DNA from: Xenococcaceae cyanobacterium
GTDB lineage: Bacteria > Cyanobacteriota > Cyanobacteriia > Cyanobacteriales > Xenococcaceae
NCBI GenBank assembly: GCA_051439345.1
Contig: JBFRWE010000469.1
Coordinates: forward strand, 1 to 57,392
Direction of reading: 5' to 3'
DNA: 57,392 nucleotides
Below are positions 1 through 53,079 of this stretch, one piece after another. Each line of letters begins with the position of its first letter. Within the stretch, counting starts at the first letter, position 1. Under the pieces are notes generated by a model. The model was not told the origin of the DNA and ran no database searches. It saw nothing but the letters and a program-made list of their open reading frames with translations. The position numbers and the translations under genes are program-made.

Positions 1-183
1 AATGTAAGCGCAACGCGTGTGGTATATTGGCCAGCACGTCAAAGCGTCTAGCTGGTCTTTGACTGCCAGCACCGATTTATTGTCGGTGACAGCTAGTCAG
101 GTTCTAGGAGTAGTGCGACGCTCTTTGGACTCAAGACCTGGGTTAGAATCTCCGCACTTTCGCTCTCGGAGAGAAGTCAAAGA
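1..183 (+). mobile_element. Window-edge copy of an IS200/IS605 right-end / omega-RNA-like structured unit (possibly the 3' tail of a tnpB lying left of the window)
   Basis: Nested stems ctagct(48-53)/agctag(91-96) enclose hairpin caccga(70-75)/tcggtg(83-88). Terminal hairpin tctccg(149-154)/cggaga(167-172) is followed by gaagtcaaag. Layout and strings (ACAGC...TCAGG, CCGCACTTTCGC) match the units at 42005-42232 and 52930-53079. The translated tail ...GLESPHFRSRREVK resembles read-through tails of tnpB ORFs. Confidence 0.4.
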
Positions 184-196
184 TTCATTGTCTCTT

Positions 197-224
197 GACT
201 AACAACTAACGACTAACGACTAAA
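197..224. repeat. Heptamer tandem repeat (GACTAAC-like, 4 units)
   Basis: gactaac aactaac gactaac gactaaa read directly from the sequence. Resembles the STRR-type short tandem repeats known from cyanobacteria. Confidence 0.8.
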
Positions 225-5336: not shown

Positions 5337-5364
5337 GTACGGACGTAGCATGCTACGTCCGTAC
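5337..5364. repeat. Perfect 28-nt palindrome (REP-like; possible terminator hairpin)
   Basis: gtacggacgtagcatgctacgtccgtac equals its own reverse complement. It lies 16 nt after the stop of the oxidoreductase gene and is followed by tggttagtagttagt heptamers. Confidence 0.85.
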
Positions 5365-5517
5365 AGTGGTTAGTAGTTAGTTACTATTGACGCTCCAACT
5401 ATCAACTTTCCTATTTGATGTTCATCTCCTACAGCTAAAAGCCCGTAGGTTTCCACACTTACCCTACTGTTTATGACTAATGACTAATCACGAATTCTTT
5501 GCTAGAGAAAATTAAGC

Positions 5518-6039
5518 ATGTTCAAGAAAATATTAGTAGCTTTAGACCGTTCTTCACAAGCAGAAGTAGTTTTTGATTGCGCTTTGTCCATAGCTCAACC
5601 AGAACTGAGTCAGGTGTTGCTGGTACATTTTATTGACTGGCAAATGGAAAAAGTTTCTCCTTGGGTTGGTGTGGGTACTTTATACGATATCAATGTATCA
5701 GGCGATCGCTATCATCGAAACCGCGAACATCTACAACAAGCAATAGAAAAAAACAGGGCTTGGCTGGAAACTTATAACCAAAAGGCGATCGCTAAAGGTA
5801 TTAACTGTGAAGCTGAATGCCTAGTAGGTAGCTGCAGTTTAGGGATTGGCGATCGCGCTAAGAAATGGGGTGCAGATTTAATTATTATTGGTCGCAGGGG
5901 TCACAGGAATATATCAGAAATAATTTTGGGTAGCGTTAGTAATTACGTGATTCATCACGCCCCCTGTTCAGTTTTTGTGGCTCAAGGAGTAAAAGCCGAT
6001 CGGGCTAACATCTCGGAGCAAGATAGTGAGGTTAAGTAG
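5518..6039 (+). CDS. Universal stress protein (UspA family)
   Basis: MFKKILVALD... N-terminus and C-terminal GRRG...GSVSNYVIHHAPCSV ATP-binding-type motif. Confidence 0.9.
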   Translation: MFKKILVALDRSSQAEVVFDCALSIAQPELSQVLLVHFIDWQMEKVSPWVGVGTLYDINVSGDRYHRNREHLQQAIEKNRAWLETYNQKAIAKGINCEAECLVGSCSLGIGDRAKKWGADLIIIGRRGHRNISEIILGSVSNYVIHHAPCSVFVAQGVKADRANISEQDSEVK

Positions 6040-6064
6040 TTAGTAGTTAGTAGTTAGTGGTTAG
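6037..6064. repeat. Heptamer tandem repeat (TAGTTAG x3 + TGGTTAG)
   Basis: Read directly from the sequence. Begins at the usp stop codon. Confidence 0.85.
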
Positions 6065-14777: not shown

Positions 14778-15050
14778 ATAGATTAAGTCCTTTTTTTAAC
14801 TATTATTTTTGAGCTTAGAGATCACTATAAAAAAAATAGATAATATTATCTAATTATTCACTAATACTTTAGATAGTTTAGTTTGGCAGAAAACACTTTT
14901 GACAAAATCACAATAATTGTCGCAGTTGGGAAGCCCATCGCCTTTAGGTATGGGAGGAACAACGAGGCAGCACCGCCGACCAAGCTGGAATTTAATTCCA
15001 GCTTGCACGCGTGCGGTGGCATTCCGCCACTTTTAAGTGCTGTCACAAGG

Positions 15051-15059
15051 TGATATAAT
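15051..15059 (+). promoter_or_regulatory. Candidate extended -10 promoter (TGaTATAAT) for tnpB
   Basis: TGATATAAT ends 7 nt before ATG 15067, which would give a leaderless or near-leaderless mRNA. No experimental support. Confidence 0.3.
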
Positions 15060-15066
15060 CAGGCTT

Positions 15067-16263
15067 ATGAAACAAGTCCTGACTATAGTTTGCAAACTCA
15101 ACCCTTCTCAAAAAGCAGTCAAAATGATAGATACTACTCTTGAGATGTTCGCTGCTGCTTGTAACTATGCTAATCAGGAAGTTAAGCCATCTATAACCAG
15201 CAAAACTACAATTCAATCTTTGGTCTATCAGACCATTAGAGAGAAATACAGTTTGTCTGCTAATTTGGCAGTTAGGGCTTGCGCGAGGGTTGGTGCTAAC
15301 CGCCAAACTGCGAAACAAAAAAACAAGCCAGTGAAAGCATTCAAGCCAACATCGGCGGATTATGATGCTCGGATATTTGCTTTCCGTGAGCAAGACTGGT
15401 CTGTTAGTCTGACTTTGGTTGGCGGTAGAGAGCATATTCCAATTGTTGCTAGCAACTACCAAGTTGGAAAGCTTAAAGGGACTAAACCAACATCGGCACA
15501 GCTTTGTAAGCACAAAGATGGTAGCTACTATATTCATATTCAAGTTAAGGATGAGTCCCCAAAACCAATTAACTCCGATAACGTGATTGGAGTTGATTTT
15601 GGTCGCACTGATATAGCGGTTACTTCTGACCACAAAAAATGGTCTGGTCATGAAATACGTGATGTTAGAGACAAATACTCTAAACTTCGCAGCGTACTCC
15701 AAAAGAAAGCCTCGAAAGGCACACGCAGTAGCAGGCGCAGATGTCGGCAACTGCTGAAACGGCTGTCGGGTAAAGAGAAAAGATTTCAACGCCATACCAA
15801 TCATGTCATCAGCCAAACCATAATTCTTGATGCCAAACAATCTAATAGTCTTGTAGCTATTGAAGATTTGACTGGTATTAGAAATCGAACTAACCAACAA
15901 CCTAGAAGTAAAACCGAAAGAAGACGCTCTAACTCTTGGGCTTTCTATCAGCTTCGTACTTTTCTTGAGTACAAAGGATTGATTAATGGAGTTGAGGTAA
16001 TTCCAGTTTCGCCACGTTATAGCTCGCAAACCTGTCATGCCTGTATGCACTTGGGGTTGAGAAGCGGAAAAAGATTTAAATGTACTAATAGCGGTTGCGG
16101 TTGGCATGGTGATGCTGATGAAAATGCAAGTTATAACTTGTCGATTATTGGAGGGGTTGTAAGCCTCCTTCGAGGTTCGGATTCTTTGTCTTGTGCATTG
16201 AATTCAGGGCTACTGAAATACCATCGCAGCGTGGCGAAAGCCAACGAGCGAAGCGTCCTTTAG
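15067..16263 (+). CDS. tnpB: TnpB (IS200/IS605 OrfB) RNA-guided endonuclease family protein
   Basis: RuvC-I GVDFGRTDIAV, RuvC-II VAIEDLTGI, zinc finger CHAC...CTNSGC, RuvC-III HGDADENASYN. I place the start at ATG 15067 (MKQVLTIVCKLNPSQ). Confidence 0.9.
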   Translation: MKQVLTIVCKLNPSQKAVKMIDTTLEMFAAACNYANQEVKPSITSKTTIQSLVYQTIREKYSLSANLAVRACARVGANRQTAKQKNKPVKAFKPTSADYDARIFAFREQDWSVSLTLVGGREHIPIVASNYQVGKLKGTKPTSAQLCKHKDGSYYIHIQVKDESPKPINSDNVIGVDFGRTDIAVTSDHKKWSGHEIRDVRDKYSKLRSVLQKKASKGTRSSRRRCRQLLKRLSGKEKRFQRHTNHVISQTIILDAKQSNSLVAIEDLTGIRNRTNQQPRSKTERRRSNSWAFYQLRTFLEYKGLINGVEVIPVSPRYSSQTCHACMHLGLRSGKRFKCTNSGCGWHGDADENASYNLSIIGGVVSLLRGSDSLSCALNSGLLKYHRSVAKANERSVL

Positions 16264-16280
16264 GCGTTGGTAAGCTTACT
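16095..16280 (+). ncRNA. Predicted omega-RNA (reRNA) scaffold region of the TnpB element; extent approximate
   Basis: Placed by analogy: TnpB omega-RNAs derive from the tnpB 3' end plus the right end. The right-end hairpin is at 16241-16270. Not verified. Confidence 0.35.
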
Positions 16281-28127: not shown

Positions 28128-28829
28128 CTATTTCCATGCACTACAATCAACAGGTTGTTTAGGGTCGGAAGCATGAGCTTGTTGGAGTAGCTCGATAAAT
28201 TGCTGATTAGCTTGTTTATCAATTAGCCATTCCTCATAGTCATCATCGAATTGACCTTTGTAAAAAGCGTTTTCCCAATTACAGGCTGATTTAATTTGAG
28301 TAGGAGTGAGATTTTTAGTGTTAATGAGGATGGCACTTGAGAGATTAGCATTGGTGATGTCAACACTCTTGAGATTAGCATTGGATAAGTTGGCACGATA
28401 GATATCAGCATTTTTGAGGTTAGCATTGGCGAGATTAGCATTGGAGAGATTAGTAAGATAGATGTCAGCATTTTTGAGATTAGCATTTTTGAGGTTAGCA
28501 TTGGAGAGATTAGCACGATGGATGTGAGCAGCTTCAAGATTAGCATCTTCAAGATTAGTATTGGAGAGATTAAGTAGCTTTAATTTTTTCTGAGCTTTGA
28601 CAAGTTTTTCTAAAGCCTCAATAATTGGAATTTGCCAACAATTGTTATTTAAAGAACAATCATAGACTAATTGTCGCTCGGCATTAAGTTTAATTTTGCG
28701 CCCAATAAAATAGCCAGCCAGAATTGAAACTAAGAGGAAAAAAATAAGCAAGATGAGGCAATTAGTTTTCGGCTGTTTGTTAGTTCTGTCTGGCAAATTT
28801 GTAGCAAATTCTGATTGATTAATTTTCAT
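28128..28829 (-). CDS. Membrane-anchored pentapeptide-repeat protein
   Basis: N-terminal TM (CLILLIFFLLVSILAGYFI) followed by a long ANLxNANLxN pentapeptide run. Confidence 0.85.
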   Translation of the reverse strand: MKINQSEFATNLPDRTNKQPKTNCLILLIFFLLVSILAGYFIGRKIKLNAERQLVYDCSLNNNCWQIPIIEALEKLVKAQKKLKLLNLSNTNLEDANLEAAHIHRANLSNANLKNANLKNADIYLTNLSNANLANANLKNADIYRANLSNANLKSVDITNANLSSAILINTKNLTPTQIKSACNWENAFYKGQFDDDYEEWLIDKQANQQFIELLQQAHASDPKQPVDCSAWK

Positions 28830-41173: not shown

Positions 41174-44100
41174 TTACAATTTATGTTTTGTGTTCAGATA
41201 TTTATCAGTTTCTCGCAATCGCTTACTCAAGAAGCGACATATTTCTAAAATAATGTGGGGACGTTGAGTTATCAAACTGATAAAGCGTTTTTTTTCTAAC
41301 TTGAGTAGAGTGCAATCTCGAAGAGCGATCGCGCCATCCCAACGAGGTGCATTATCAAAGAGTGCTACTTCACCAAAATATTGTCCTTGAGATAGTTGTT
41401 TAATCTCTTGTTGTTCTCCATCGAGAGTTTTGATGATTTTGATAGTACCTTCGGCAATAATATAGAGATGATCGCCCCAACTACCCTCAGTGTAGATAGT
41501 TTCATTGCTTAATACTTGTTGTTGCTCTAGTGCTTTATCGATTAAGAATAGCTCGTCTAAAGAAAGGTTTTTAAACAGAGCCACATTTTTAAGTAACAGT
41601 AATCGGTTCATCGATGAATTAGTGGGGGAAAGAAGTTGACAAGAAGAAGGAAAAATTTCTCTGGCAACCAATTGAACCACAGGATCGCTATCTTTGAGTA
41701 AGGTAGATGGTATCACCGCCAAAGCTATCAACGCACCAGTTCTGATCCATCTATCTTTGGACTCTAAGGCTTCAAGGAGTATTTTATAGCCTTTGTTTCT
41801 CAACCATTGAGGGTTAACAGTACTGGCGTTCACTTCTTTAAGTTGAACTTTATTTCCTGGTGGTTCTTGTTTGACCGAGAGGGGTGGCGGGGTTTCCTGA
41901 GGGGCTGTGACTCGAATCGAATTCGAGTCCTTGAAAGCCCCGTCGCCATACCCCTCGACAGTTTCTTTAAGCGGTGCGTACGCGGAGCGACTACCGTCAG
42001 GTCTCCTGCGGAATTTATAATCCGCAAAGCGGTCAGACCCCGCGTCGGCGAAAGACGCGTCTTGAAAAAGTTGCTCATGGGGGGAACCCCCATGAGCGCA
42101 CTTTTCCGCAAGGGAACGCTGACCAAGACAGGAACGCGCACCAAAAGAAACCCGACGGGGCTTACAAGGGGCAGACGCAGGTTCTGCCCACGGCCCCTTC
42201 CCAACGGACTGTCTCGCAATCGAGGTGTTGACTATTTGTTCGAGTAGGGGAACCAAGGGCAAGATAAAACGGCGATGATTTAAAGAAACTAGTACTTCTA
42301 CCGCGTTAGCCAAGTCTCTTTGCTCTGTCGTGGCTAAAATCCGCGTGACAGCCTTAACTGTACGAGAATAGCCCAGACAAGAAAGGATATACAAAACTTT
42401 TTGAATTAAACGTTGATGGTAATCATTAATCGCGATCGCTAAAGGTTGCCAACTAGGATCGTTTGGGGGGATTTGTTGTTGCCACTTACGAGTGCGAGTC
42501 AGTTGCTCAAACTCAGGAGTCAGATATTTAAATAAAATATCATTAGCGTATCGGTTTTGTACTTTGGCAATAGCTTCGATCGCTGTATCTACTACTTCTT
42601 TTTGCGGAGATGATAAACTTGCTTGAGCTAAAGATAACCCTGGTTTGCCATAAGCTGCTAAGGCACTAGCTACTTGCTGACGCACTCTGGGATGAGGATC
42701 GCTCAGTCCAGTTTTGAGGTAAGGTAGCATTTCTGCACAACGGGTAATCCCTAATAGCTTAAAGGCAGCAGTTCTTACTAATGGTTCAGAATTACCAATT
42801 TCTTTAACAGCTACTTCGGCTAAATCATAATTATCGACAGAAGCCAAGACACTTAAAGCTTCTAGTCCTTCTCGTTTAATTTCTGCATTAGCTTGAGGCA
42901 AGATATTAATCACTAAAGGAACTAATTCTTGCTGATGGCAATGAGTAATAATTCTCAAAATAGCTTTAGCAGTACTCTTTTCTAAAGAGGATTGCCAGAT
43001 TTTTGCCCAAGCAGTTTCTTGATTAGTAGTTTTGATACTAATAGCAGCTACCGCAGCTAATAACCGAATAGTGCGATCGCCATCTTGAAGCAAAGAGTCA
43101 ATTTGTTCTGGACTAAAAGTATATTGGCTAGCAATTAAAATTTCTAAAGCAGTTGTCCGTAAAATTGTTTGATTGTCTGGAGTTAGCCAATTTTTGAATT
43201 CTTCAATTGCTTCTGCTTCAGGAGTCGTAGCCAACAATTTAACCACTCCATGATGTACCTTTGTATCTCCCCTGAATAGTAGGGTTTTTACTTCGGGTAA
43301 AAATTGACTAGAGTTGCCCAAATTAGCTGCTAATTCTAAACCTTTGATTTGAACATAGGGGTCTTCATTAGTGAGTAATTCCCGAATTGCATTACTAGAC
43401 TGAGGTGGTAGCTGAGTTTGATACTCACTAAAATCATCTAGATTGATAGTATTAGAGCGGATCATCTCTTCCAAACTCTGAGCATAAAATTTCCCCATGG
43501 GTAGACGCACTAATAACAGTAGCACCGTCAAACCCGCAGCTAGCCAGGTAATTTGCCCCAGACTGAGATAGAGAGTGCATAACCACAACAGCACACCAGC
43601 TAAAGTCAGTCCTACAGAGTAAATGACACCATCACTCAAAGCACGAACTCTGCCGATAAATTCTTGAGGAACTCCATTGTAGTTTAACTGGTGTACAGGC
43701 AAATTAATTGCTTTGTAGAGTGCATCCCCATTGATATGCAGTCCAATGGCAGCCAACAAATTAAAATTAAGCAATAATCCTGAAAAGCTGATTAAGGTTG
43801 TCAGAGGATACACTGGATTCATCTGCGCTACCCCTAGCCACTTCAGTAAGGGACGAGTAAGAGCGTAGAGAACAACTACTTGCACCAAGCTAATAAGAAT
43901 CCGCATTAAACCCAGAAACTCAGTTAAAGCTTCTTCACTAAAATGCTGACCATAAATATTGAACCAGAGAAACTCCGAACTGATGTAGATAATTACCAGT
44001 AAAAAACTACTACTAGCCAAAAACGATACTAAAGGATAGCGTTTGACTAAATCGGGAAAGGTTTGCAGTGATTCAATAATTCCCGTTTTAGTTTTAGCGT

Positions 44101-44698
44101 AAATACGATCTATCCGTCTTTGAGATTTTTCTAGATAAACCAGTTGAGCAAAGGCAACTGCAAATAGAACTGGCAGACAAAATAGTAAATCCCTTGTTCT
44201 CAGATAATGAGACAAAACTACTGTCAGACCACCACCCAACATAGTACCTACTGCTTGAGCAATACCAATAAAAGGTGCATATTGCTTGTACTCTAAAGTA
44301 GTGAAATAGTCTGTTAATAAACTAGGATAAAGAATATTGTTATGAAAATCCCACTGGAAGAAAATAGCAATTAGCAGAATGTAATAAACTGCAACTACAT
44401 CTAAACTTAGTAATAAACGCAGTCCCAAGATCGCGAAAATAGAGAGCAGCAATATGTAGCGAAATAATTTAGGGCGACTATAGCGATCGATAATTTGTGA
44501 AAAGATGACATAAGCAGGCATAGAACATAATCCAATCAGGATAAAGGCAAAGGGTAAGTTACCTGCCCCAACATGACTAACAAACAAAGAGTTAGCTACT
44601 GCCATCGCTACTACGCTATAGCTTAAAACCGTAACCGCTAAAAGCAAAAGTTGAGTTAAACGACCGACTGGGTTAATTGAGAGACCTAAACGTTCCAC
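41174..44698 (-). CDS. Fusion protein: N-terminal multi-pass transporter-like domain (MFS/TLC-like), HEAT/armadillo-type repeats, C-terminal cyclic-nucleotide-binding domain; carries an in-frame insert of about 121 aa
   Basis: About 12 hydrophobic helices in the first 420 aa. HEAT-like repeats (DPHPRVRQQVASALA etc.). C-terminal cNMP beta-roll YFGEVALFDNAPRWDGAIA. The ORF is continuous through the GC-rich element. Confidence 0.85.
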   Translation of the reverse strand: MERLGLSINPVGRLTQLLLLAVTVLSYSVVAMAVANSLFVSHVGAGNLPFAFILIGLCSMPAYVIFSQIIDRYSRPKLFRYILLLSIFAILGLRLLLSLDVVAVYYILLIAIFFQWDFHNNILYPSLLTDYFTTLEYKQYAPFIGIAQAVGTMLGGGLTVVLSHYLRTRDLLFCLPVLFAVAFAQLVYLEKSQRRIDRIYAKTKTGIIESLQTFPDLVKRYPLVSFLASSSFLLVIIYISSEFLWFNIYGQHFSEEALTEFLGLMRILISLVQVVVLYALTRPLLKWLGVAQMNPVYPLTTLISFSGLLLNFNLLAAIGLHINGDALYKAINLPVHQLNYNGVPQEFIGRVRALSDGVIYSVGLTLAGVLLWLCTLYLSLGQITWLAAGLTVLLLLVRLPMGKFYAQSLEEMIRSNTINLDDFSEYQTQLPPQSSNAIRELLTNEDPYVQIKGLELAANLGNSSQFLPEVKTLLFRGDTKVHHGVVKLLATTPEAEAIEEFKNWLTPDNQTILRTTALEILIASQYTFSPEQIDSLLQDGDRTIRLLAAVAAISIKTTNQETAWAKIWQSSLEKSTAKAILRIITHCHQQELVPLVINILPQANAEIKREGLEALSVLASVDNYDLAEVAVKEIGNSEPLVRTAAFKLLGITRCAEMLPYLKTGLSDPHPRVRQQVASALAAYGKPGLSLAQASLSSPQKEVVDTAIEAIAKVQNRYANDILFKYLTPEFEQLTRTRKWQQQIPPNDPSWQPLAIAINDYHQRLIQKVLYILSCLGYSRTVKAVTRILATTEQRDLANAVEVLVSLNHRRFILPLVPLLEQIVNTSIARQSVGKGPWAEPASAPCKPRRVSFGARSCLGQRSLAEKCAHGGSPHEQLFQDASFADAGSDRFADYKFRRRPDGSRSAYAPLKETVEGYGDGAFKDSNSIRVTAPQETPPPLSVKQEPPGNKVQLKEVNASTVNPQWLRNKGYKILLEALESKDRWIRTGALIALAVIPSTLLKDSDPVVQLVAREIFPSSCQLLSPTNSSMNRLLLLKNVALFKNLSLDELFLIDKALEQQQVLSNETIYTEGSWGDHLYIIAEGTIKIIKTLDGEQQEIKQLSQGQYFGEVALFDNAPRWDGAIALRDCTLLKLEKKRFISLITQRPHIILEICRFLSKRLRETDKYLNTKHKL
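41870..42232 (+). mobile_element. Composite GC-rich structured element (TnpB right-end/omega-RNA-like units, no tnpB) inside the 1174-aa ORF; boundaries approximate
   Basis: Abrupt GC-rich block. Exact 24-nt match cctgcggaatttataatccgcaaa (42005-42028 = 52930-52953). Hairpins at 41909-41929, 42041-42059, 42073-42097 and 42169-42189. An inverted truncated arm at 41870-41942 matches 52954-53000 in reverse complement. Confidence 0.7.
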
Positions 44699-50220: not shown

Positions 50221-51654
50221 ATGGCAACAACTCCAGCAACATTTAATCCTACTGCCCAACTGCAAGAAAAATTAAGCAAACAAAATGAATTACTGCCTGC
50301 TGGTGGTTCCGATCCTACTAAATTTGACGTAAAAGAAGCTTGGTATCCTGTTTATTATCTAGAAGACTTGGATAAAATCAAACCGAATACTTTTACTTTA
50401 CTCAATCAAAATATAGTAATTTGGTGGGACAAATCTGGTCAATCTTGGCGAGCATTTGAAGATAAATGTCCTCATCGTCTTGCCCCTTTGAGTGAGGGAA
50501 GAGTCAACGAATCAGGCTTATTAGAATGTCCTTATCATGGTTGGGCATTTTCGGGGACAGGAAATTGTGAATATATTCCCCAACAAACAGAAGCAGGGAA
50601 AGCAGAAACTTCGCACAGAGCTTGTGTTAAGTCTTTGCCTACTGCTGAAGCTCAAGGAATGTTATTTGTCTATGCAGGTAAGAGCGAAAATGCAGCCAAA
50701 ACTAAAGTTCCTATTGTTGAAGCCTTAGAAGAAAACCCAAAGGATTGGGTATGTATGGGGACTTTTAGAGATATTCCCTATGATGCTTTGACTTTACTGG
50801 AAAACGTACTTGATTCTAGTCATATCCCTTATACTCACCATAAAACGGTGGGAAATAGAGCTAATGCTGCACCAGTAGAATTAAAAGTAATCGAATCAAG
50901 TAAACACGGCTTTAAGGGAATGTGGGCAGAAGGACCACGCAAAGGAACACTGGGGAAGCAATATACCACCTTTATTGCCCCAGGATTGATGTGGCATGAC
51001 TTAACCTCGAAACAGTTTGGTAGAACTATGACTGTAGTTTATGCTACTCCCATCAGAAAAGGTGAATGTCGTCTATTTGCCATATTTCCCTTCAAATTTA
51101 CCTCTCCCATACCTGGCTTCTTTATCAAGCTAACACCTCGCTGGTACTCTCATCTTAATCAAAACAGCGTACTAGAAGACGATCAAATTTTTCTCCATTA
51201 TCAAGAGCGTTATTTAGAAGCTATGGGAGGTAGTCCCAATTTCAACAAAGCTTTTTACTTACCAACCAAAGCAGATAGTTTTGTGGCGGAATTGCGCCAG
51301 TGGGTTAATTACTATTGCACAGAGCCTTTTCCTCAAGAAAGTTTATCTGCTCCTTGGTCACGAGAGCAACTACTCGATCGCTATCATTCCCATACAACTA
51401 AATGTTCCAGTTGCCGTCAAGCCTTAAATAATCTCAAAACATTCAGAGAAGTTGTGGCTATTGTTGCTGTTGTTGCTTGGATTATTACACCGATGCTAAT
51501 TGTACTTTTAAATAACTCTTCTTTGTGGTTTGTAGCTTCTTTAACTATATTGAGTCTGATTTGTGCAGGAATTTGGTGGCAATTAGGCAAGTTAGAAAAG
51601 AAATTTTATCGAGGACGAGATATTCCCCCCAGAAATTTACCAGAGAAAAAGTAA
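50221..51654 (+). CDS. Rieske [2Fe-2S] non-heme iron oxygenase, PaO/Tic55/PTC52-like family
   Basis: Rieske CPHRLAPL...CPYHGWAF, mononuclear iron site DSSHIPYTHH, CxxC (CSSC) and C-terminal TM helices. Confidence 0.88.
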   Translation: MATTPATFNPTAQLQEKLSKQNELLPAGGSDPTKFDVKEAWYPVYYLEDLDKIKPNTFTLLNQNIVIWWDKSGQSWRAFEDKCPHRLAPLSEGRVNESGLLECPYHGWAFSGTGNCEYIPQQTEAGKAETSHRACVKSLPTAEAQGMLFVYAGKSENAAKTKVPIVEALEENPKDWVCMGTFRDIPYDALTLLENVLDSSHIPYTHHKTVGNRANAAPVELKVIESSKHGFKGMWAEGPRKGTLGKQYTTFIAPGLMWHDLTSKQFGRTMTVVYATPIRKGECRLFAIFPFKFTSPIPGFFIKLTPRWYSHLNQNSVLEDDQIFLHYQERYLEAMGGSPNFNKAFYLPTKADSFVAELRQWVNYYCTEPFPQESLSAPWSREQLLDRYHSHTTKCSSCRQALNNLKTFREVVAIVAVVAWIITPMLIVLLNNSSLWFVASLTILSLICAGIWWQLGKLEKKFYRGRDIPPRNLPEKK

Positions 51655-52719: not shown

Positions 52720-52765
52720 AATTCTGGCATAAACTTAGACAAATCTTGGTTAAGTCAGAAATTAC

Positions 52766-53079
52766 TCCGCCCTTCGGGTTCAACAGTTCTTGCTCCGTCC
52801 TATACGCGCTCGGAAACCTCAGCGCGGGCGGTGCGCTTTGCTCAAGCGGTGCGCGGGGAGGGGGGTTTTATCATCAGATGGATCGGCTAGAAGTACAGAC
52901 TTAAAATTATTAGAAACCCCCCTTCCACCCCTGCGGAATTTATAATCCGCAAACGGGGCTTTCAAGCACCTGAACCAAGTTCAGGTGACAGCCCCTCAGG
53001 AACGCGCACCGAGGGAAACCAGCCCACCGCAACTGTTTCACAAGACCGCACTTTCGCGCTGCTCTGACCGTTGGTCAAG
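52766..53079 (+). mobile_element. Intergenic GC-rich structured unit, TnpB right-end/omega-RNA-like, without tnpB
   Basis: GC-rich island in AT-rich spacer. Long stem ggggaggggggttt/aaaccccccttccacccc. Hairpin gcggaatt-TATAAT-ccgc. Nested stems ggggct(52955-52960)/agcccc(52990-52995) around cacctgaac(52967-52975)/gttcaggtg(52979-52987). The tail CCGCACTTTCGC...ggtcaag parallels 153-183. Confidence 0.7.

Follow-up and report, generated by a model that had tools for sequence, protein, structure and literature searches.

A 45-nt nested-hairpin unit as a probable small mobile DNA repeat of Pleurocapsales-type cyanobacteria

REP sequences and REPINs are mobilised by RAYT transposases of the Y1 HUH type, which probably read them as hairpins in single-stranded DNA. 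The small dispersed repeats SDR1-8 of Nostoc punctiforme, the subject of work by Elhai et al. in 2008, are reportedly 21-27 nt long, nested in larger repeats, and present or absent between relatives. The omega-RNAs of TnpB, to which curated Rfam families (HEARO and IS605-orfB types) are related, consist of a scaffold of more than 100 nt and a variable guide, and they lie at the 3' end of tnpB or overlap it. The hairpins of REP and REPIN stand beside a GTAG or CGTC tag, and intragenic units exist (PMC3733652). According to a later paper, SDR-like repeats have not been found outside the Nostocaceae (PMC5861425). Rickettsia palindromic elements (RPEs) occur in-frame in unrelated protein genes, whose products thereby gain a translated peptide stretch (PMC10969869).

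We analysed a 57,392-nt stretch of DNA from a Xenococcaceae cyanobacterium (contig JBFRWE010000469.1; hereafter the window) that carries three copies of a 45-nt unit made of one hairpin enclosed by another stem. At a probability of roughly 0.6, we read this unit as a self-contained nested-hairpin DNA repeat within a superfamily of seemingly mobile, palindromic elements of very small size in Pleurocapsales-type cyanobacteria. No description of it in Pleurocapsales was found in the searchable literature. By analogy, the unit seems to work most like REP/REPIN or the Nostoc repeats, and its in-frame habit appears to resemble that of the RPEs.

Like REP and REPIN, the unit is short, palindromic and of high copy number, and its stem sequence varies between families while pairing is kept. 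It differs in having two stems, no inverted doublets and no GTAG or CGTC tag (its hairpin is flanked by CAAG and AC, and the unit ends in AC and TC), in having about 40% of its evaluable copies inside open reading frames (ORFs), and in that no RAYT was found for it in the genome fragments. With the Nostoc repeats it shares very small size, nesting, presence or absence between relatives, and an inner hairpin of 21 nt, but it is set apart by its description as a two-stem 45-nt unit with a hypervariable paired cassette, other sequences and a home in Pleurocapsales. As with RPEs, a palindromic in-frame insertion leaves the reading frame open; the RPEs, however, are about 100-150 bp long and belong to Rickettsia, whereas the present unit has 45 nt (15 codons) and nests in other hairpins. 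Size and taxon exclude membership of that family. Insertion without target-site duplication, seen at a tnpB site and at loci L152 and L236, is shared with IS200/IS605 elements, and with these and with PATEs the unit would share a dependence on single-stranded DNA hairpins; many TnpB elements occur in the same genomes, some of them with look-alike hairpins in their left ends. At the three unambiguous sites it lacks the fixed tetra- or pentanucleotide target of IS200/IS605 elements; it has one compound hairpin in place of separate left- and right-end hairpins, does not lie beside tnpA or tnpB, and has only a fraction of the length of an omega-RNA. Its outer stem might be taken for a 6-bp inverted repeat of a classical MITE, but there is no target-site duplication and no parent insertion sequence was found.

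Table 1. Positions and make-up of the features discussed (window coordinates), with the outer stems of sister families
Feature	Position	Strand	Sequence or content	Basis and context
Module copy 1	52953-52997	+	AC-GGGGCT-TTCAAG-[CACCTGAACCAAGTTCAGGTG]-AC-AGCCCC-TC	Pattern; covariance model 66.8 bits, E 1.7e-12; fold z -5.4
Module copy 2	41899-41943	-	AC-GGGGCT-TTCAAG-[GACTCGAATTCGATTCGAGTC]-AC-AGCCCC-TC	Pattern; 64.9 bits; fold z -5.4
Module copy 3	42155-42199	+	AC-GGGGCT-TACAAG-[GGGCAGACGCAGGTTCTGCCC]-AC-GGCCCC-TT	Pattern; 57.6 bits; fold z -3.3
Mosaic carrying copy 1	52754-53073	+	Composite, GC-rich, 320 nt	Between polyprenyl synthase and DUF212 genes
Mosaic carrying copies 2 and 3	41876-42232	-	Composite, 357 nt = 119 codons	In-frame in the conserved MFS-HEAT-cNMP gene; separates its HEAT part from its cNMP-binding part
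Host gene of copies 2 and 3	41174-44698	-	1174 aa; membrane domain, HEAT repeats, cyclic-nucleotide-binding domain	Open through the insert
TnpB-only IS200/IS605-family element	14908-16279		tnpB at 15067-16263	Ends set against a 98%-identical copy in another context (L245)
Look-alike nested hairpin	14971-15018	+	CACCGC-cgacca-[AGCTGGAATTTAATTCCAGCT]-tgcacgcgt-GCGGTG	Left end of the 14908-16279 element; partial model match at 14984-15002
Claimed fourth copy	50-105	+	Local imperfect palindrome	Not detectably a family member
Sister-family outer stems			GGACA/TGTCC, GGGCG/CGCCC, GGGAC/GTCCC, GGTCG/CGACC, GTGCG/CGCAC, GTCCG/CGGAC	Structural descriptor

The layout of the unit is AC-GGGGCT-TWCAAG-(21-nt hairpin)-AC-AGCCCC-TC, and the scheme that also takes in its sister families is AC-(5-6 bp stem)-(6-7 nt)-(21-nt hairpin)-(2-3 nt)-(stem')-TC. 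In the window, the frame GGGGCTTNCAAG-N(12-30)-ACRGCCCC matches exactly three times (52955-52995, forward; 41901-41941, reverse; 42157-42197, forward) and had no match in 100 shuffles. A covariance model of 87 family members, searched against the window, found only these three copies besides one partial match (Table 1). They are as an earlier note on this DNA had drawn them, with inner hairpins that are different and fully paired and, in copy 3, a T:G pair in the outer stem. All three fold as RNA into the two-stem shape, and when they are folded as DNA both strands do equally well. The window DNA is AT-rich, its nearest protein relatives are in Xenococcaceae and other Pleurocapsales, and the neighbours of the copies are housekeeping genes. 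There is no T-run 3' of the hairpin at any window copy, and a search of the window for tRNA and tmRNA genes found none.

The same note had counted a fourth copy close to the window edge, and this one did not stand. The site does contain the hairpin CACCGA/TCGGTG followed by ACAGC, but its 5' spacer is 16 nt and not 6, its hairpin is 19 nt and not 21, and its minimum-energy fold uses a pairing other than CTAGCT/AGCTAG. The covariance model gave no match there even at E<10, and a search for relatives of window positions 1-200 in 755 kb of related DNA gave nothing above chance words. Because the site is not confirmed as a family member, the covariation of the enclosing stem that had been argued from its CTAGCT/AGCTAG pairing is left without support. 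The TCAGG after the module, which had been called conserved, is likewise not kept in the wider family. The left edge of the window (1-180) has several local palindromes, so a further repeat island may be cut off there by the end of the contig.

Copies outside the window were collected by several scans. The pattern used on the genome collection, ACGGGGCTTNCAAG-N(12-30)-AC, was too loose: among the matches listed (120 loci) there were six real copies, and the rest were mostly chance matches in unrelated phyla. The six are all cyanobacterial, from Xenococcaceae MAGs, Hyella patelloides, Chroococcus sp. FPU101 and one unclassified MAG. A Nostoc match (L001) was rejected as apparently a chance match inside coding sequence, and a Microcoleus match (L011) is not a module. 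A tight scan of metagenomes gave at least 120 loci, and the plasmid collection gave only three partial matches, all from Pleurocapsales. Pooled, the genome-collection and metagenome scans gave at least 130 instances with at least 83 different inner hairpins; more than 120 copies beyond those of the window come from Pleurocapsales-type cyanobacteria. The inner hairpin is exactly 21 nt long in 120 of 130 instances (about 92%, among the matches listed).

The inner hairpin follows the rule NNNNN-GA-N7-TC-N'N'N'N'N'. Among the matches listed, 75 distinct 21-mers were available from a set in which only the frame was fixed; each of positions 1-7 is paired with its partner among positions 21-15 in 92-99% of them, and 504 of 525 pairs (96%) are Watson-Crick, with four G:T and three A/C. 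An ungapped alignment of 45 columns fits the two-stem structure with 98.9% of cells paired, but most of its rows had been pre-selected for pairing, so that the 96% of the frame-only set is the unbiased figure. In that alignment, again for the matches listed, 265 cells are changed on both sides as against 74 in shuffles, the inner helix has one one-sided change as against 245 two-sided ones, and the two-stem signal collapses when the partners are slid against each other. The claim that pairing is kept while the sequence changes is thus borne out. The 75 hairpins combine 33 recurrent 5-bp stem types freely with 45 loop cores, and 20 of the 45 cores also occur as their reverse complement (matches listed). 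The variable 5-bp stem is found in flanking DNA in 10 contexts, compared with 5.1 +/- 2.1 in shuffles; we set aside the idea of a guide-target match, as this excess is weak and probably comes from nested repeats.

The copies were collected with an exact-frame pattern, which fixed the outer stem of the main family by the search itself and which biases the sample to young, intact units. A structural descriptor (5-bp stem, 7 nt, 21-nt hairpin, 3 nt, stem') found 123-125 units as against 0-0.2 in shuffles, all of them 45 nt long, and 10 distinct units in 12 occurrences have other outer stems (matches listed; Table 1). The ends of these sister families, which the search did not require, are AC on the 5' side in nearly all (one has GC) and T(C/T) on the 3' side in all. 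The enclosing stem does therefore covary, by way of sister families found elsewhere and not by way of the window-edge site.

Sites that are otherwise the same differ by the presence of the unit as an exact 45-nt block, with no target-site duplication. At the tnpB site AAAGCC/TCGAAAGG, which is empty in the window and in L250, exactly 45 nt (1246-1290) are added in L251 and L252, two loci on one 5.27-Mb contig, and nothing is duplicated; the site itself is a small hairpin, GCCT-CGAA-AGGC. Locus L152 has one unit within the loop of another unit's hairpin (ccaag/AC...TC/ttcaggtg), the receiving hairpin being identical to that of window copy 1, and in L236 a unit lies in the loop of an unrelated hairpin, which three other loci show unfilled. 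In a gene for an IS630-like transposase a GAT codon is cleanly split by the unit. In 9 of 75 contexts the two flanks can pair with each other across 7 nt or more, where 0.45 would be expected; units therefore often sit at the tip of another hairpin. The left flanks of the three unambiguous sites are GCC, AAG and GGGA; no target tetranucleotide is conserved among these three, and the only preference is a G-rich tendency at positions -3 and -4. Opposite orientations of the unit were seen at one and the same host site. A different palindromic module, of 51 nt (GGTGCAGCGCGGTCTTGGGGGTTTCCCCCATGAGCGACTGCACC...), occupies the same tnpB spot in another lineage (comparison of L251/L252 with L253 and L250), which points to hairpin tips as a hot spot for insertion and to the existence of a second family with a length likewise divisible by three.

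Units build up GC-rich mosaic islands that are polymorphic between close relatives. The island with copy 1 is absent from its site in the close relative L121, and in L122 it has a shorter core of about 110 nt (an estimate from the alignment) without the 45-mer. The island with copies 2 and 3 has a GC content of 52-59% in surroundings of roughly 35-45%, and its site is empty in L122 (gaacaaata/gtccaacaag). Copy 2 is translated in-frame by the host gene as ..DGAFKDSNSIRVTAP.., and copy 3 lies antisense to that gene. The membrane domain of the host gene has no Pfam match here; a few homologues carry a precomputed PF07690 (MFS_1) assignment. The length of the orthologues is about 1040-1060 aa, as against 1174 aa in the window; one that is 91% identical has no insert, one that is 93% identical has a differently built version of 225 nt, and the reading frame is open in the window gene and in both orthologues. 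In the 225-nt variant there are an indel of 178 nt, one more nested 45-mer and a hairpin that has been exchanged.

The counterpart of this island in L121 is built differently and has a further unit nested in the orthologue of copy 2. Between the same flanks, the hairpin of copy 2 (41909-41929) is GACTCGAATTCGATTCGAGTC in the window and GGCGTGAATGCAATTCACGCC in L121 (11990-12080), that is, GACTC...GAGTC against GGCGT...ACGCC. In the orthologue of copy 3 the hairpin is unchanged and the frame differs by four transitions, in a surrounding gene that is nearly identical. This change of hairpin and frame between the window and L121 is far faster than background. A comparison of L156 with L143 again shows the 45-mer or its hairpin to be wholly different at near-identical flanks, for which simple cut-and-paste or copy-and-paste is insufficient. 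Such wholesale differences look like cassette replacement, by conversion between copies, by repeated insertion at a hot spot, or by template switching. The two islands of the window have other modules in common, namely the hairpin CTGCGGAATTTATAATCCGCA (42006-42026 and 52931-52951) and the segment AGGAACGCGCACC (42130-42142 and 52998-53010), whose order relative to the 45-mer differs between the islands. A separate perfect hairpin, TCATGGGGGGAACCCCCATGA, at 42074-42094 is related to the family of 51-nt modules.

Of 72 evaluable copies, 29 (about 40%, among the matches listed) lie inside ORFs of at least 150 codons. Carriers confirmed by Pfam are PutA, an ABC transporter ATPase, two TnpB proteins (L079, L140), an IS630-like DDE transposase and a group II intron reverse transcriptase, to which the TnpB copies in L251/L252 and the host gene of the window can be added. 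A further copy (L254, 1506-1550) is in a DNA adenine methylase CDS annotated by RefSeq on plasmid pSTA7437.02 of Stanieria cyanosphaera PCC 7437 (NC_019749.1, about 51216-51260), and its host context, ..gcaaAC(unit)..gggaacgcgcacc, is shared with window copy 1. TnpB homologues of 415-437 aa, where 400 is usual, fit such inserts; of the two that were verified, the protein of 415 aa contains the 45-nt unit, and the one of 417 aa contains a palindromic module of a different type, 51 nt long. As its length is a multiple of three, the unit is tolerated in real genes as an in-frame insert of 15 residues. Among the matches listed, 25 copies inside ORFs are in the sense and 4 in the antisense orientation, a bias of which stop codons on the antisense strand explain only part; of the intergenic copies between co-directional genes, 7 are on the same strand and 7 on the opposite strand. 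We also looked for a design by which the unit would avoid stop codons; none is clear overall, as two frames are depleted and one is enriched.

One might explain the two-stem pattern by a structured RNA, which could be a TnpB omega-RNA scaffold or some other cis-acting hairpin such as a stabiliser, a processing site or a terminator. The RNA fold is strong and significant (z to -5.4), the covariation is massive, the sense orientation prevails inside ORFs, and TnpB elements are abundant in the window and in related genomes. The earlier note had taken the covariation as the classical signature of selection on the structure of RNA (or single-stranded DNA), but the argument for RNA is weakened by what the family shows: G:U intermediates are nearly absent (4 G:T in 525 pairs), loops and whole units occur in both orientations, even at one host site, and the intergenic copies do not favour a strand (7 against 7), so that the wobble pairs and the consistent orientation of a structured RNA are missing despite the covariation. 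The hairpin is not followed by a T-run, and copies lie within the coding regions of unrelated genes. The more specific proposal of an omega-RNA scaffold fails on position and size and was rejected. The unit has 45 nt and no adjacent guide-like variable segment, its window copies have housekeeping neighbours, and a search of Rfam returned no family at gathering or relaxed thresholds, up to E 5. The only tnpB of the window is 26-37 kb from the copies, which leaves the omega-RNA reading unsupported, and has no unit at its 3' end. The left end of this TnpB element does contain a look-alike nested hairpin whose inner 21-mer follows the same NNNNN-GA-N7-TC-NNNNN rule, and in the left end of a related element there is a two-stem look-alike of 43 nt; a common origin may lie behind this, or simply one more invasion. 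Taken together, we regard a structured RNA as very unlikely. The other option raised along with omega-RNA, a single-stranded DNA hairpin read by a transposase, fits the evidence, though no enzyme was identified, and it is plausible but unproven. A folded single-stranded recombination site of the integron attC type, on which a tyrosine recombinase would act and in which hairpin exchange would be site-specific recombination of cassettes, has likenesses in its basal stem, asymmetric internal loop, second stem and variable top, in the freedom of the sequence while pairing is kept, and in the swapping of units at the same site in close relatives. However, the window sequence has no integrase, cassette array or attC core motifs (RYYYAAC/GTTRRRY), and units are dispersed singly, also within genes, so that we think this very unlikely too.

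In the reading that we prefer, that of a mobile DNA repeat, both stems are presumably kept because the unit must fold as single-stranded DNA in order to be recognised and moved by an enzyme acting in trans, for which a Y1/HUH-type transposase or a structure-specific recombinase would be the likeliest kind. The inner 21-nt hairpin would be an exchangeable perfect palindrome, and its diversity probably comes from processes at the DNA level (propagation of sub-lineages, replacement or conversion, inversion of the loop, and possibly template switching in replication) rather than from slow compensatory substitution of the RNA type. No mobilising enzyme was found in the window and the genome fragments, and no copy flanks a candidate gene. 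The same palindromes could instead be inert repeat DNA, maintained without selection by template switching in quasi-palindromes and gene conversion and spread by recombination or repair at hairpin tips. Template switching during replication can yield perfect palindromes and loop flips without selection, and the near lack of one-sided intermediates and the loops in both orientations are its hallmarks (PMC8794818). The replacement of a hairpin at an orthologous site with unchanged flanks (window against L121) and the combinatorial assortment of stem types and loop cores also agree with such a process. Against it, the unit is held at exactly 45 nt and its hairpin at 21 nt in about 92% of instances, the AC and TC ends and the architecture are kept across sister families with different stems, the stem 5-mers are recurrent discrete types without free drift, and at unrelated sites exactly 45 nt have been inserted, as would be expected of a defined mobile unit; we consider inert repeats unlikely. 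Somewhat less doubtful, but still tentative, is the idea that the mobile repeat represents an undescribed class of ultra-small, structure-specified mobile DNA. Such an element would home to hairpin tips without duplication, always have a length divisible by three and thus add 15 residues to proteins in place of breaking them, and present an exchangeable 21-nt palindrome with a swapped 5-bp stem "code" to an enzyme that reads structure.

If the mobile reading is confirmed, the 45-nt units would rank with the smallest pieces of mobile DNA on record, and would provide a clean natural case of a mobile element defined by its shape and not by its sequence. Units of this kind explain GC-rich islands in Pleurocapsales genomes and may contribute to contig breaks, and annotation pipelines treat the 15-residue or larger composite inserts as ordinary coding sequence. 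For those who hunt for motifs, the family is a caution that strong covariation alone is no proof of RNA, and that wobble pairs, strand bias and loop orientation should be checked. The presence of the family in a cultured strain, Stanieria cyanosphaera PCC 7437, makes it experimentally testable.

Other repeats occur in the window. Short heptamer-like tandem runs (actaacg/gttagta) at 200-222, 5360-5390 and 6030-6051 resemble the short tandemly repeated repetitive sequences of other cyanobacteria. A 15-nt periodic repeat at 28310-28587, with copies 15 or 30 nt apart, lies in a reverse-strand ORF (28128-28829) whose product is probably a pentapeptide-type repeat protein.
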